Positions 20,537 through 38,928 of a stretch of DNA of 64,000 nucleotides are shown piece by piece. The position numbers and the translations under genes were made by a program. Source of the stretch: Candidatus Heimdallarchaeota archaeon (GTDB lineage: Archaea; Asgardarchaeota; Heimdallarchaeia; JABLTI01); contig JABCTZ010000036.1 of assembly GCA_018238155.1 (NCBI GenBank), forward strand, positions 384,001-448,000, written 5' to 3'. The notes below the pieces were generated by a model. It was not told the DNA's origin. It saw only the letters and a program-made list of their open reading frames with translations, and did no database searches. Positions within the stretch are counted from its first letter, which is position 1. Each line of letters begins with the position of its first letter.

Positions 20537-21292
20537 ATGAGCACTATTGAAAATGAAATTTTGACATTTGATGAAGTTATATCCACTCAAGAGTTAGCAA
20601 TGAAATATATTCGTGAACGAAAAAAAACTCATGGTTTAGTTCTAACTGCAACAAAACAAACAGGTGGACAAGGACGATTAGAGCGTAGTTGGTCATCTCC
20701 TATTGGTGGGCTCTGGATGACTACAATATATCAATGTAAAACACCTCTAGCTCAATTTGAAGGTTTTTCAGTTCGTTTGGGTTTGGAAATGATCAAGGAT
20801 TTTGAGAATTCAATTCCATTAAAATTTCAAATTAAATGGCCAAATGACTTGATAGTAAACAAGAAAAAAGTAGGTGGGATTTTGATTAATACACGAATAA
20901 AAGAAGATATTCTGACCGAACTCATAATTGGCATTGGTATCAATATTAATAATCAAACAGAAACATTACCTCCCGAAGTAGCATCAATTGCTACATCAAT
21001 GAGTGAAAACATGCTCGATAAGATTTCTATTAGTTCAGTTCAACACATTGTTCTTACAGCACAGAATAGGTTATTCCAAAATGTAGAAAGAAATGAGTTA
21101 GAAGATATTGCAGATATTTGGACCAAGAAATCTCTCAGTTATCAGAAAACTATTCGAGTAGTTACTCGAGAAGAAACATTGACCGGCGTAGAGCAAGGAA
21201 TTACTGAAAATGGTAGCTTAATTCTGAAAACAAATTCGAATGAATTAAAAACAGTTTCTATAGGAGATATTGAATTGCTGAGAATAAAATAA
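20537..21292 (+). CDS. birA: Biotin--protein ligase (no N-terminal HTH)
   Basis: STQ, QTGGQGRLERSWSSP, IKWPNDL, KKVGGIL and IGIGININ motifs. AGGAGA RBS. Confidence 0.93.
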   Translation: MSTIENEILTFDEVISTQELAMKYIRERKKTHGLVLTATKQTGGQGRLERSWSSPIGGLWMTTIYQCKTPLAQFEGFSVRLGLEMIKDFENSIPLKFQIKWPNDLIVNKKKVGGILINTRIKEDILTELIIGIGININNQTETLPPEVASIATSMSENMLDKISISSVQHIVLTAQNRLFQNVERNELEDIADIWTKKSLSYQKTIRVVTREETLTGVEQGITENGSLILKTNSNELKTVSIGDIELLRIK

Positions 21293-21316
21293 AAAATAGA
21301 AAGGGAAATTGATTCC

Positions 21317-22078
21317 CTACGCTTCAATTAATTGATTAACAAAAAATTCTCGTAATGCAACGAATGTTTCATGACGAGCTTGGGGGTTCGTAAGATTGTG
21401 ATCAGCATTTGGAATGATTTTAAATGCTTTTGGATTAAATGCTTTAGAGAAAAGATGTCTCATACCTTTCATTGGCATAAAACTATCTTTTGAACCTGTA
21501 ATAATCAGCAATGGTCTTGGTGAAATTCGATTAACACATCTTAATGGATTATTTCCTCGAATATCATTTTGCAATTTTTCCTTTACACCTGTTGCAGCTG
21601 TACGAACTAATCCTGATGCGGTTAATCCATCCCAGAGAGCATCAAAGTGAGGATAATTCACAACAAAATCGAAATCGAATAGTGGTGCTTGTAAAGCAAC
21701 TATTGCTACTCTTGGATCTCTCGATGCATGACATGTTACTAATGCTCCTCCCAGACTCACTCCATATAATCCGATTCTCATTGGATTTACTTTTGGATGA
21801 TTTGCTAAAAAGGAAATTACATAATCCAAGTTTTGGAGTGAAGCATGGATTGTCGTTTCTCCTTTACTTTTGTAAAAACCTGATAAATGAAATACAAAAT
21901 AAGCTATTCCGTTATCAGTTAAAAGTGATGCAAGAGCTTCTTCTTTAGCGAATTCATTTGAAACCAACCCATGAACTTTACAGACCACAGGATATTTCTT
22001 TCTATCATCATCTGGAAAGAAGAACGCAGCACTTATTGTGCTATTATAGTAATCGATCATTAATTCTTCTTTTTTCAT
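21317..22078 (-). CDS. Alpha/beta hydrolase, candidate trans-acting thioesterase
   Basis: HG oxyanion motif (VHGL), GVSLGG nucleophile, GSKD, ADH. Starts 14 nt after the BCCP stop. Confidence 0.8.
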   Translation of the reverse strand: MKKEELMIDYYNSTISAAFFFPDDDRKKYPVVCKVHGLVSNEFAKEEALASLLTDNGIAYFVFHLSGFYKSKGETTIHASLQNLDYVISFLANHPKVNPMRIGLYGVSLGGALVTCHASRDPRVAIVALQAPLFDFDFVVNYPHFDALWDGLTASGLVRTAATGVKEKLQNDIRGNNPLRCVNRISPRPLLIITGSKDSFMPMKGMRHLFSKAFNPKAFKIIPNADHNLTNPQARHETFVALREFFVNQLIEA

Positions 22079-22092
22079 TTTTTGTTTATCTC

Positions 22093-22584
22093 CTATTTTT
22101 CTTTATTTTGAATTGGTTTTACTTTTATCATCAATTGCCTAGCTACTACTTGATCACCGGTATTCACTAGAATTTTATCTACGATACCATTAATTGGTGA
22201 AAGAATTTCATTTCTCATTTTCATAGATTCGAGAATAAGTAGGCATTGTTGATCACTTACAACATCCCCAATTTTGACTTTTACATCAACTATTTTCCCA
22301 GGGATAGCTGCTTTGATATCTGCTTGTCTCTTTTGTTGAACTCCTTTCTTCAATTGTATTGTAGGTGAATGTCGAAAATCGAAATCTATTTCTTTGCCAT
22401 CAAGAAAAATAACATTGTCTTTGAATTCAATTCTGAATTCATGACCACTCACAAATACTTTATAGAATTTGCCATTAAAGATGACTTCAGGAGTAAAACT
22501 ATAATTTTCTACGATTATTTTTTTATCGGTTTTTTCTAATTCTAAATTAATACCATTTAGAGATATTTTGTACCTGTTTTCCAT
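22093..22584 (-). CDS. accB: Biotin carboxyl carrier protein
   Basis: IKAAIPGKIV...LESMKMRNEI biotinyl-Lys motif. TAATG overlap with the accC stop at 22584. Confidence 0.92.
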   Translation of the reverse strand: MENRYKISLNGINLELEKTDKKIIVENYSFTPEVIFNGKFYKVFVSGHEFRIEFKDNVIFLDGKEIDFDFRHSPTIQLKKGVQQKRQADIKAAIPGKIVDVKVKIGDVVSDQQCLLILESMKMRNEILSPINGIVDKILVNTGDQVVARQLMIKVKPIQNKEK

Positions 22585-36620: not shown

Positions 36621-36738
36621 TTTTGAATAAAATGGTTTAATATGGAGTTAGAACGTTAAACTGATAACAAGTTAGTTTTCGTACTAACTTATTTATTCCA
36701 TATTAATCTGCTATATTCAAAATAAAGGATGAAAACAA

Positions 36739-38586
36739 ATGGCATTTGCAACAAGGTCTAAATTTTTTTGGTCAAGATTTATTGCTACTTGTGTTAAATA
36801 TCTTGGCGTTGCAAATACTCAGCATATTCGATACATCGCAGAAAAGCTCTTCCCTACAGAAATGAGTCGACAAAACATTCTCTATCACGTTCGCATTGCT
36901 GAAGAGAAAGGTTGGATTGCAACTTTTTCTTCATCTCTTGAAATAACAGCTGAAAATGAAATTATTTTTAGAAAGAATTTTTTATTAGCTATAAATGAAA
37001 AAATATCTGCTCAAAGATTTATAATCATTGGGACAGAAAGTTTTGAACTTGCCTCAGAAAGTCGAATAATAGACGTTTGCACTGAAGTGAAATTAGGTTC
37101 CATTTCAATTACCGACAGTAAAATTCTAACAATAGTTACACAAGAATCAATAAAACGTTTGAGCTCTACTAAAGAAAAAGCCATCGGTAATAGATCATTG
37201 TTCATGGTTTTGATTCGATTTGGCTGGTTCTGGTTGAATATCAATCCAAAATTCACGCTAAACATTGTTGAAGCAATCAAAAATAACATTTCAAAACATA
37301 ATTTTAATGAGCTCTATCAAATAGATGTCGATTTACTTGAAATTGTTAGTTTACTTGAACTAGAAACTACACCTGAAATTTCTATGGACGATCTAAAGAA
37401 TTATCTTAATATTAGTATCAAAATTGCTTCTTCAAAAAAACGAAAAGATATCATGAATTTAATGGCAATGATTTTACTTATTTCAGCTCGCTATCTCGTT
37501 TCGTATAACAAATTACCTCTTGCTGAAGAATATTTGAATCGGGGAATAAAATATCTGCGTTTAGTGACTCGGAAATCAATCTTAATGAGAAAATTACATG
37601 TTGATGGTCTATTCGATTTAGGATTTATTTATTCACAACAGGGCTGGTTTTACAAAGCTTTAGGCATCTATGAAAATATTGAGCGGATTATTGAAGAAGA
37701 ATTTACACTTGCAGAACCAATTTCTAACTTGAAAGGAAGATTAGCTCATGGAAAATCTGAATTATATCTCATGATGGCTTATCCTGCTTACACTTTCAGA
37801 GATGATGACTATCGAAGTTCTCTATTACGATCATTAAAGTTCGCTAGAAAAGCAAGTAAAATTTACCAAATAAATAAGAATAAATTAAAAATATCTGAAA
37901 TCAATTTACTTAGTGCTTGGATTTCAGCATTAATTGGCAGGTTAGCTCGTGCAGAAGTATATTTGAATAGAGGAATAAAGGAAATGGTTGCGCCTGTTCC
38001 CCCAAAGCTCAATGGGTTATATTATAGTGCATTAGCTGAAATAAACCGAAAACAAGGAAAGTATGAAGAAGCAATAAGAAATATTTCACGCTCATTCGAT
38101 TATTTTAAAATTCTTGGCTATTTAATTGGTAAGCTCTTCTGTATGACCAGATTGGCAGAAGTACATGCCACTCTTTCACAAAAGGATAATCAATATTCAT
38201 TTATTTCATATGGCAATATGACAAATCTTTTTGTAAAAGGAGTGTCAGATATGATAAGTCATGTTTTCTTAAATTTTAACAAGCAATTAATGAAAAAGTC
38301 AGCTATAATATCTTTTTATGCTTCAGAAGTCGCATTAAGTAATCATCCTGAAATAGAGAACTATGCAGAAATACTTTCGGGAAAAAATATCTCACCTGTT
38401 CTATTAGGAGAATCATTTACTGTTATACCTGAAACATTGCTAAATCTAGAAATTGTTGCTAAAAAGAAAATTACTTGCATATCCGGTTCTGTAGTAGATG
38501 TCTCTGACGGCTATTGCTTTGAAAATTTCAAAGAAGAACTTGGTAAATTTGACGATTTATTCCAAGATCTATTATCAAAGAAATGA
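36739..38586 (+). CDS. N-terminal wHTH plus TPR-like protein, possible cluster regulator
   Basis: EMSRQNILYHVRIAEEKGWI helix-wing pattern. TPR-like LGFIYSQQGWFYKALGIY and LAEINRKQGKYEEAI. Co-oriented 118 nt after the PKS. Confidence 0.6.
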   Translation: MAFATRSKFFWSRFIATCVKYLGVANTQHIRYIAEKLFPTEMSRQNILYHVRIAEEKGWIATFSSSLEITAENEIIFRKNFLLAINEKISAQRFIIIGTESFELASESRIIDVCTEVKLGSISITDSKILTIVTQESIKRLSSTKEKAIGNRSLFMVLIRFGWFWLNINPKFTLNIVEAIKNNISKHNFNELYQIDVDLLEIVSLLELETTPEISMDDLKNYLNISIKIASSKKRKDIMNLMAMILLISARYLVSYNKLPLAEEYLNRGIKYLRLVTRKSILMRKLHVDGLFDLGFIYSQQGWFYKALGIYENIERIIEEEFTLAEPISNLKGRLAHGKSELYLMMAYPAYTFRDDDYRSSLLRSLKFARKASKIYQINKNKLKISEINLLSAWISALIGRLARAEVYLNRGIKEMVAPVPPKLNGLYYSALAEINRKQGKYEEAIRNISRSFDYFKILGYLIGKLFCMTRLAEVHATLSQKDNQYSFISYGNMTNLFVKGVSDMISHVFLNFNKQLMKKSAIISFYASEVALSNHPEIENYAEILSGKNISPVLLGESFTVIPETLLNLEIVAKKKITCISGSVVDVSDGYCFENFKEELGKFDDLFQDLLSKK

Positions 38587-38688
38587 TTTTTCACTGCTTT
38601 TTTTGGTTCTAGATAATCTTTTAATAGAAGGTCTAGATTATTAGACTAACAATAAATAACTAGGAGAATACAGCTATGATGAGGAATC

Positions 38689-38928
38689 ATGTTTGCCTAC
38701 ATTCTTAAAACACTACCTCCTAGTGCAAACTTTGTTTTTTATGTTTTAGAACGAAATGGCCCAATGCCACGTTATCGTTTATTGGGTGAAACAAATCTTC
38801 CAGATAGAACACTTGGTTATGCACTTGATTCGTTATTGAAGAAAGGTCTTGTTATAAGAGTAAGTGATAGAAAAGATAAACGATTGAGAATTTATCAAAT
38901 ACCTTCTCCAATAATCGTTACAGAATGA
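38689..38928 (+). CDS. Small MarR/ArsR-like winged-helix protein
   Basis: LPPSANFVFYVLERNGPM...ETNLPDRTLGYALDSLLKKGLV...DKRLRIY. GAGGA RBS. Confidence 0.75.
   Translation: MFAYILKTLPPSANFVFYVLERNGPMPRYRLLGETNLPDRTLGYALDSLLKKGLVIRVSDRKDKRLRIYQIPSPIIVTE

Follow-up and report, generated by a model that had tools for sequence, protein, structure and literature searches.

A candidate self-priming fatty-acyl synthase with its own carboxylase genes in a Heimdallarchaeota genome

The genome of a Candidatus Heimdallarchaeota archaeon (G000) contains a six-gene cluster in which a single megasynthase adjoins the genes of an acyl-CoA carboxylase, a biotin ligase and a hydrolase. The cluster is considered here as a candidate source of fatty-acyl chains in Asgard archaea. 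It lies in the window, the 64-kb stretch of DNA that was analysed (G000:C15:384001-448000), which is part of a 461-kb contig. The assembly comprises 4.08 Mb in 46 contigs with 33% GC, and is 90.7% complete with 5.9% contamination. In the following, G000 denotes the window genome and f1 its family, while other f and G labels denote relatives. The cluster consists of the following genes:

20537..21292, plus strand: birA, biotin-protein ligase (Pfam BPL_LplA_LipB, 70 bits, and BPL_C)
21317..22078, minus strand: alpha/beta serine hydrolase (Pfam Hydrolase_4, Abhydrolase_1, BAAT_C)
22093..22584, minus strand: accB, biotin carboxyl carrier protein (Pfam Biotin_lipoyl; ESMKM biotinylation motif)
22584..24059, minus strand: accC, biotin carboxylase (Pfam CPSase_L_D2, Biotin_carb_N, Biotin_carb_C; NCBIfam accC, 569-595 bits)
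24240..25838, plus strand: pccB, PccB/MmdA-type carboxyltransferase, acyl-CoA carboxylase beta (Pfam Carboxyl_trans, 644 bits)
25896..36620, plus strand: megasynthase P0001, 3,574 aa, one uninterrupted open reading frame (ORF) without stops or frameshifts over 10.7 kb

The ORF listing and the Pfam and NCBIfam matches thus agree with a preliminary description of this DNA, which had placed the five smaller genes and a single 3574-aa synthase at these positions. That description had also assigned ketosynthase (KS), acyltransferase (AT), ketoreductase (KR), dehydratase (DH) and enoyl reductase (ER) domains, acyl carrier proteins (ACPs) and a fused phosphopantetheinyl transferase (PPTase) to the synthase, all of which were recovered by domain scans. 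Three features go beyond it, namely a tandem FabK-like ER pair, a second complete KS and the threonine at the carrier site of both ACPs. From the N- to the C-terminus, the order is pseudo-ER, FabK-type ER, KS1, AT, KS2, two ACPs, KR, DH and Sfp-type PPTase:

25908..26669, plus strand: ERa, degenerate FabK-like triosephosphate isomerase (TIM) barrel, residues 5-258 (FabK structures, TIGR03151)
26880..27935, plus strand: ERb, FabK/PfaD-type enoyl reductase dependent on flavin mononucleotide (FMN), residues 329-680 (Pfam NMO, TIGR03151)
28071..29456, plus strand: KS1, residues 726-1187 (Pfam ketoacyl-synt and C-terminal domain)
29928..30824, plus strand: malonyl-type AT, residues 1345-1643 (Pfam Acyl_transf_1; fabD model, 250 bits)
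31533..32825, plus strand: KS2, residues ~1880-2310 (aligns to FabF structures)
32928..33467, plus strand: two tandem ACPs, residues 2345-2524 (Pfam PP-binding)
33573..34865, plus strand: KR, structural and catalytic parts, residues ~2560-2990 (Pfam KR, 110 bits)
35013..35885, plus strand: polyketide synthase (PKS)-type double-hotdog DH, residues ~3040-3330 (Pfam PS-DH, PKS_DH_N)
35913..36617, plus strand: fused Sfp-type PPTase, residues ~3340-3574 (Pfam 4PPT_N and ACPS; HetI-like match)

Conservation was checked in 33 full-length homologues, down to 35% identity, and all 19 of the 19 catalytic or carrier residues examined are invariant. In ERb, this applies to His474 within the motif GMECGGH (33/33). 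KS1 retains Cys934, His1068 and His1106, and KS2 retains Cys2038, His2186 and His2226 (33/33). Since the second KS keeps the active-site cysteine that a chain-length factor (CLF) has lost, as well as both histidines, it is a full ketosynthase and not a CLF. The AT carries Ser1443 in GHSLGE, Arg1468, and His1548 in the motif AAFH that had been noted in the preliminary description. The KR, which matches positions 1816-2266 of the PfaA model, retains Tyr2948 and Asn2952, the DH retains His3076 and Pro3085 of its HxxxAxxxxP motif, and the GIDLE and WAAKEA motifs of the PPTase are likewise invariant. ERa has Arg144 at the position of the catalytic histidine, and this site varies among relatives. 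ERa probably has only a structural role, as a pseudo-ER paired with the active ERb. The pair is reminiscent of the ER heterodimers that thraustochytrid polyunsaturated fatty acid (PUFA) synthases are said to form, to go by the title of one study (PMC13311796).

No thioesterase, methyltransferase or FabA-type isomerase domain was found in the synthase with Pfam models. A FabA-type gene was not seen in the cluster neighbourhood either, although no genome-wide search for one was made. The PPTase domain is the sole PF01648 match in G000, and the only ACPs and the only PPTase found in this 90.7%-complete genome are those inside the synthase. One other match to the ketosynthase family (PF00109) is present, a weak one of 30 bits on another contig. 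Judged by its domains and their residues, the synthase has all the activities that iterative, fully reducing synthesis of type I requires.

The carrier domains have an unusual attachment site. Both ACPs read DLGIDTV, with Thr2389 (33060-33062) and Thr2483 (33342-33344) at the phosphopantetheine position, and these residues align exactly with the cofactor-bearing serine of PigH and of ordinary ACPs. Across 120 archaeal and bacterial relatives, the site is threonine in 432 of 442 carrier motifs and serine in 7. Threonine at this position is thus a family trait under selection and not a sign of decay. The alignments suggest a threonine-linked phosphopantetheine, which would be a novel attachment chemistry, and the site may explain why the synthase family is constantly paired with its own PPTase. 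As a family-wide trait, it poses a directly testable question in phosphopantetheinylation chemistry.

The genes next to the synthase are predicted to supply its extender units. A biotin ligase is present together with a biotin carboxylase, a biotin carboxyl carrier protein that has the MKM lysine, and a carboxyltransferase with fused alpha and beta parts, as in three-subunit carboxylases of the archaeal/actinobacterial type. By sequence, BirA, AccC, AccB and the PccB-type carboxyltransferase constitute a complete biotin-dependent acyl-CoA carboxylase, in which BirA would biotinylate AccB. The accC stop and the accB start overlap as TAATG, in line with the translational coupling proposed earlier. 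The motif AGGAGA, described before as the ribosome-binding site of the locus, is found upstream of this junction as well as before the start codons of pccB and the synthase. The pccB ORF extends from 24213, and the likely start is the ATG at 24240; orthologues have 532 aa. In a homologue search with PccB, the labelled relatives outside Asgard, at ~62% identity, are mixed and point to neither an archaeal nor a bacterial origin.

The hydrolase has a Ser-Asp-His triad (Ser108, Asp198 and His227) that is invariant in eight orthologues. An AlphaFold2 (AF2) model with a predicted local distance difference test (pLDDT) score of 82 places it nearest to lipases, esterases and trans-acting polyketide thioesterases (DcsB, GrgF) among solved folds. 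The modelled fold is compatible with chain release, albeit unspecific, which makes the hydrolase a candidate chain-releasing thioesterase.

The best curated model for the synthase is PfaA (TIGR02813), with 945.2 bits, below the cut-off of 1010.1. This is consistent with the Pfa/PUFA-synthase-like character given in the preliminary description. The closest described family is Type R of Shulse & Allen 2011, which comprises loci from Koribacter, Solibacter, Elusimicrobium and Roseiflexus, includes no archaea in that paper and has an unknown product (PMC3098273). The synthase has the Type R core order of KS, malonyl-CoA acyltransferase, second KS ("CLF"), tandem ACPs and KR, and the threonine carrier site is present throughout both. 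A dedicated PPTase is also common to both, here as a C-terminal fusion instead of a downstream gene, and an acetyl-CoA carboxylase gene is sometimes present in Type R clusters. Relatives from the Type R taxa are 42-47% identical in the KS1-AT part and probably share one KS family with it. Among the matches listed, relatives at this level come from Elusimicrobiota, Chloroflexota, Actinomycetota, Myxococcota, Acidobacteriota, Thermodesulfobacteriota and Thermoplasmatota. The archaeal synthase departs from Type R in its number of ACPs (two, where 3-6 are described), in the FabK-type ER pair fused in tandem at its N-terminus, and in a full Cys-His-His triad at the "CLF" position. Furthermore, its cluster includes a complete carboxylase, BirA and a hydrolase, and it occurs in an archaeal host. 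The all-in-one form is not confined to archaea. A few unlabelled full-length proteins (P0053, P0074) share the same order, with KS domains that go with a Thermodesulfobacteriota locus, and a Bradymonadales variant exists. By its core architecture, the synthase is an archaeal all-in-one form of the catalogued but uncharacterised Type R family. No later characterisation of Type R, no known product of the family and no paper describing this synthase in archaea were found in the literature, which speaks against the objection, raised beforehand, that the locus belongs to a characterised family with a known product.

Other systems share single traits with the synthase. The PfaABCDE synthases of marine Gammaproteobacteria likewise combine two active KS domains and tandem ACPs with an ER of the PfaD/FabK type, a PS-DH dehydratase and an Sfp-type PPTase. 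They differ in being composed of four or five polypeptides instead of one and in carrying the serine motif LGIDS where the archaeal protein has threonine. In addition, the archaeal synthase lacks a FabA-type DH/isomerase, has no PfaB counterpart, and places KS2 between AT and ACP. Enediyne PKSE and fungal fatty acid synthase (FAS) of type I also carry a PPTase fused C-terminally to an iterative synthase, and fungal FAS uses an FMN-dependent TIM-barrel ER, as here. However, the domain order and the fungal PPTase type differ, and PKSE has neither an ER nor a second KS.

The host is an Asgard archaeon, as had been supposed from the flanking genes. The small-subunit (SSU) rRNA of G000 is archaeal, and the genome encodes 33 Ras-family GTPases, four of which lie on the 461-kb contig that holds the window, whereas such genes occur in 1 of 14 control genomes. 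Archaeal rRNA combined with an expanded set of eukaryote-like small GTPases, found also on this contig, supports the Asgard assignment; the class name is taken from the labels of public homologues and not from a marker tree. The full-length homologues nearest to the synthase (54-63% identity at 100% coverage) bear Heimdallarchaeota or Asgard labels, some of them on contigs of up to 930 kb. The surroundings of the cluster are preserved as well. The upstream genes BpsA and AdoMetDC are kept in the congeners G010 and G005, while the G009 contig stops short of both. Downstream, the genes for a tetratricopeptide repeat (TPR) protein, a THUMP protein and a metallo-beta-lactamase (MBL) follow in G009, G010 and G005, which are independent assemblies. 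The gene order common to the congeners is BpsA-AdoMetDC-birA-hydrolase-accB-accC-pccB-synthase-TPR-THUMP-MBL, and flanks kept in three assemblies argue against a chimeric join. No mobile-element genes were seen at the cluster borders, in keeping with the earlier remark that transposases and integrases are missing there. The locus is native to its Asgard host, and the worry that the contig might be bacterial or chimeric is countered by the archaeal 16S gene, the GTPase genes on the same contig and the shared flanks.

The preliminary description had proposed a survey of the locus across archaeal genomes. One survey covered 41 relatives in the class and another covered a sample of 301 genomes of the phylum with a completeness of at least 70%. 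Within the class, the synthase occurs in 11 of 11 f1 genomes and in every genome of four further families (10/10, 3/3, 1/1 and 1/1), and in none of the 14 genomes of a sixth family. Across the phylum it is present in 59 of 301 genomes. Outside the class, it is confined to two families (6/69 and 3/7), and other families have none (e.g., 0/77 and 0/19). The core genes travel along with it. In 9 of 10 genomes whose neighbourhoods were examined, one of them a closed 4.36-Mb Loki-type chromosome, pccB, accB and accC flank the synthase, the stretch from G012 being without an accB match. Both birA and the hydrolase gene adjoin the synthase in 7 of the 10, the exceptions noted being G009 (where the contig ends), G012 (no hydrolase), G014 and G022. 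Save for the latter two, which form the f4 pair, birA adjoins the cluster in every Asgard genome examined. In f2, f4 and Loki-type genomes, pccB directly precedes the synthase and accC is nearby. The order in f2, f14 and f27 is birA, pccB, synthase, hydrolase, accB, accC, and the hydrolase gene directly follows the synthase in G026, G222, G217 and G132. In f4, the order is accC, accB, pccB, synthase, with no adjoining match to birA or the hydrolase. The six-gene core is therefore conserved across Heimdall families and some Loki-type genomes, although the full set varies.

The phylogeny of KS1 was reconstructed with FastTree and with IQ-TREE (LG+C20, quick), with the paralogous KS2 serving as the root. 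One clade (support of 99 in FastTree; SH-aLRT of 99 in IQ-TREE) takes in all 16 Asgard-labelled KS1 rows and 11 unlabelled or oddly labelled ones, and it sits among bacterial and Thermoplasmatota branches. The tree joins the window sequence with relatives from Korobacteraceae, Elusimicrobium and Roseiflexaceae, separately from KS2, in a sampling that left out the Type R type strains and other Pfa types. This topology agrees with a single ancient gain from bacteria, after which the gene was inherited and to some extent transferred within Asgard; given the long outgroup branch, the direction of transfer is only suggested. Instead of branching at the base, Loki/Promethearchaeota-type synthases and one with a Hodarchaeota label group as sister to those of one Heimdall family, and Loki-type synthases are patchy within their own class. 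Their placement suggests transfer within Asgard archaea. In both KS trees, two public proteins labelled Zixibacteria and Bathyarchaeia (P0002 and P0004), with 60-63% identity over the full length, are placed within the Heimdall clade. Their bins or labels are probably wrong.

On balance, the cluster is best read as a native, vertically inherited Asgard system for carrier-protein-dependent de novo fatty-acyl synthesis, a reading that we hold with moderate confidence, its vertical inheritance included. The preliminary description had proposed that fatty-acyl chains are made de novo by the host. As a genomic capacity, this has good support from predicted domains that are intact and from a cluster conserved across Asgard families. 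In the proposed mechanism, the PPTase would prime both ACPs on their conserved threonines and the AT would load malonyl units. KS1 and KS2 would share elongation, perhaps over different chain lengths, and KR, DH and ERb would reduce each round, with ERa serving only as structural partner of ERb. As a FabA-type isomerase is lacking, the synthase is expected to yield a straight, saturated chain; at most, the chain would retain a hydroxy or trans-enoyl group. The adjacent Ser-Asp-His hydrolase might then free the chain as a free acid.

Genes that could take up such an acid are present elsewhere in the genome. G000 contains six PlsY and 11 DegV genes, and an operon on another contig (G000:C6:63849-66403; L105:1278-4060, minus strand) combines a FakA-like kinase of 330 aa (Dak2 and the FakA middle domain), a DegV/FakB protein of 290 aa and a PlsY of 245 aa. 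It adjoins an EMG1/NEP1 methyltransferase gene, and the FakA-like/DegV/PlsY triple is adjacent in at least six congeners. PlsX was found neither in G000 nor in any of 41 relatives, and the operon would be expected to feed acyl-phosphate to PlsY without it. The numbers of DegV and PlsY genes per genome vary with the presence of the synthase:

Family f1: synthase present, DegV 6-24, PlsY 4-13
Family f2: synthase present, DegV 9-15, PlsY 2-3
Family f3: synthase not found, DegV 0-1, PlsY 0-2

Hence, the expansion is seen in f1 and f2, the two families with the ER-fused synthase, and not in f3. As the families are few and related, this co-occurrence is a pattern and not a statistic. The operon resembles the Firmicute FakA/FakB to PlsY route in its adjacent Dak2 plus FakA middle domain, DegV and PlsY genes, here with no PlsX. 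It differs in a FakA-like protein of only 330 aa and in the 11 DegV and six PlsY genes, and its link to the synthase is one of co-occurrence only. A tentative route, to which we give clearly less than even chances, leads from the free acid via DegV/FakB to phosphorylation by the FakA-like kinase, and on to esterification with a glycerol phosphate (G1P or G3P) by PlsY, whereby the chains would join the cell lipids. A membrane-lipid destination of the chains is only an inference.

Ether-lipid genes were also surveyed. With the Pfam model of the PcrB/GGGP-synthase family (geranylgeranylglyceryl phosphate, GGGP), no match was found in 12 f1 genomes, and 2 of 10 f2 genomes have one, neither of them among the two closed ones. 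Searches with the relatives' proteins as queries found no GGGP synthase in G000, G009, G005, G016 or G026, of which G016 and G026 are the closed f2 genomes. The missing match could be due to a divergent enzyme, an analogue or a real loss, and it is not read as loss of ether lipids. Searches for GpsA and for the glycerol 1-phosphate dehydrogenase family gave weak or generic matches only. One of these, a weak GpsA-N-like match in a 371-aa ORF (G000:C3:38930-42212), lies ~2.5 kb from the gene for cytidine diphosphate (CDP)-archaeol synthase, and this locus may be a lipid-backbone locus.

Several observations weigh against de novo fatty-acyl synthesis and its use for cell lipids. In a holo carrier protein, the cofactor sits on a conserved serine where helix II begins; both ACPs have threonine there, and we know of no demonstrated phosphopantetheinylation of threonine. 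The synthase has no thioesterase domain and the fold matches of the hydrolase are generic, so that the release step is a guess. The best scores of the carboxyltransferase are against methylmalonyl/propionyl-type models, which leaves room for branched extender units. A PlsC-type acyltransferase was not found in G000, and the archaeal CDP-archaeol synthase, CarS, is present in nearly all relatives. The bacterial relatives of Type R are classed as secondary-lipid synthases and not as housekeeping FAS. Finally, lipidomics of a cultured Loki archaeon gave only archaeal lipids, as far as the citing account of that work goes (cited in PMC13400652).

The alternative that survives best is that the synthase makes a specialised ("secondary") lipid or polyketide-like chain instead of general fatty acids, for example a very long, hydroxy or partly unsaturated chain with a glycolipid, envelope, storage or signal use. 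Such a role is assumed for bacterial Pfa-like synthases, and Type R, itself Pfa-like, has been grouped with the secondary-lipid synthases (PMC3098273). The two active KS domains with tandem ACPs resemble PUFA synthases, the distribution outside the Heimdall class is patchy (6/69 and 3/7, and none in several families), and archaeal CarS is retained. However, the complete KR-DH-ER set without a FabA-type isomerase, methyltransferase or cyclase points to plain reduced chains. Furthermore, the synthase is the only ACP-dependent system in the genome and co-occurs by family with the large DegV and PlsY expansions. A specialised product is therefore a serious possibility, yet the less probable one.

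A second alternative concerns the extender unit, as the carboxylase might supply methylmalonyl-CoA, or both units, and the product would then be methyl-branched. The carboxyltransferase scores highest against mmdA (759 bits, under the cut-off of that model, which is also its best in NCBIfam), and its relatives are labelled propionyl-CoA carboxylase. By comparison, the AT has the xAFH motif, a FabD-like GQGSQ plus arginine, and 250 bits against the malonyl transacylase FabD. Archaeal carboxylases of this type take acetyl-CoA too, which also counts against a methyl-branched product, and we regard such a product as improbable.

That the synthase is an inactive relic, its carrier domains being without the serine needed for the cofactor, is very improbable. 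Threonine replaces serine in both ACPs, but the same replacement is kept in nearly all carrier motifs of the 120 relatives, the catalytic residues of eight domains are invariant down to 35% identity, and 10.7 kb of coding sequence are free of stops and frameshifts. Least credible of all is bacterial DNA mis-binned or mis-assembled into the archaeal metagenome-assembled genome (MAG), for although the contamination estimate is 5.9%, the GC content of the synthase (0.34-0.37) exceeds that of the flanks (0.31-0.33) and the closest public homologue is labelled Zixibacteria, the window is inside a 461-kb contig bearing Asgard-type GTPase genes, three other assemblies of the genus have the same flanking genes, closed single-contig Asgard genomes also contain the synthase, and the Zixibacteria- and Bathyarchaeia-labelled proteins nest in the Heimdall clade, so that their labels are likelier to be wrong.

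Native fatty-acyl synthesis by the cluster would bear on the origin of eukaryotic membranes. Although eukaryotes have their roots among Asgard-like archaea, their membranes are built of fatty-acid esters of the bacterial type, and how and when this switch occurred is a long-standing question. According to one preprint, neither FAS I nor FAS II occurs in archaea, and ACP and its synthase are almost always missing too (bioRxiv 10.1101/2024.07.05.601840). The same work proposes an ACP-independent FAS, which is likewise a proposed source of fatty acids in archaea, Asgard included. That system relies on ketothiolase/DUF35 pairs acting on CoA esters, whereas the synthase described here is ACP-dependent and of type I. 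Asgard archaea have been credited with PlsY and PlsC homologues, and the source of the fatty acids is left open in such work. Wu et al. 2022 treat only ester-lipid assembly genes and not the synthase, lipids are not mentioned by Eme et al. 2023, and surveys of biosynthetic clusters note PKS in Asgardarchaeota only in passing. An ACP-dependent synthase that is conserved and intact, primes itself and comes with genes for malonyl-CoA supply is thus a cloneable candidate for the Asgard fatty-acid source, and it shares genomes with a fatty-acid kinase-PlsY route.

The most far-reaching form of this proposal is that Asgard archaea of the Heimdall class make ester-linked fatty-acyl glycerophosphate lipids wholly with their own genes, along a route from the carboxylase through the self-priming synthase with its threonine-borne cofactor and the hydrolase to FakA/FakB and PlsY. 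We consider it unlikely as a whole. If it were true, the synthesis would take place in two families, two closed genomes included, in which GGGP synthase is hardly detectable or not detectable, and relatives of eukaryotes may have shifted part or all of their membrane to the bacterial/eukaryotic lipid type.

Three further features lie within or next to the cluster:

24060..24239, no strand: divergent accC/pccB control region, with the palindromes TTTTTACTGTAAAA at 24102-24115 and TACTGTAATATACAGTA at 24148-24164
36739..38586, plus strand: helical-repeat (TPR-like) protein, 615 aa (weak TPR matches)
17249..18358, plus strand: DegV, FakB-type fatty-acid-binding protein (Pfam DegV, 150 bits), 2.2 kb upstream of the cluster

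The 17-bp palindrome TACTGTAATATACAGTA occurs in a single copy in the 4.08-Mb genome at up to one mismatch. In the accC/pccB spacer of congeners, TTTTAC(A/T)GTAAAA is found twice in G010 and G005 and once in G009. A wider regulon is not apparent, as the genome has 11 copies of TTTACWGTAAA where 12 are expected, one of them upstream of a DegV gene. By their sequence and position, the spacer palindromes are a candidate operator, and the neighbouring 615-aa protein is a possible regulator acting there. A scan for sigma-70 promoters and terminators, which is ill suited to an archaeon, gave chance-level results, and no tRNA genes or Rfam families were found within the 64 kb.

The 615-aa protein had been described as two winged-helix genes. 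This does not hold, since 36739-38586 is a single ORF with weak TPR matches and no helix-turn-helix (HTH) family at E<=0.01 in Pfam. An N-terminal winged helix is a weak lead, with language-model matches of up to 0.77 and an AF2 model whose pLDDT of 48 makes it unusable. Orthologues with 63-87% identity occupy the same position in G009, G010 and G005, and the protein adjoins the synthase only within the genus.

The position of the DegV gene at 17249-18358 is not kept in congeners, so that its membership in the locus is doubtful. The encoded protein has 369 aa with the domain at 85-368, and would carry ~84 extra N-terminal residues if the GVG-type start is right.

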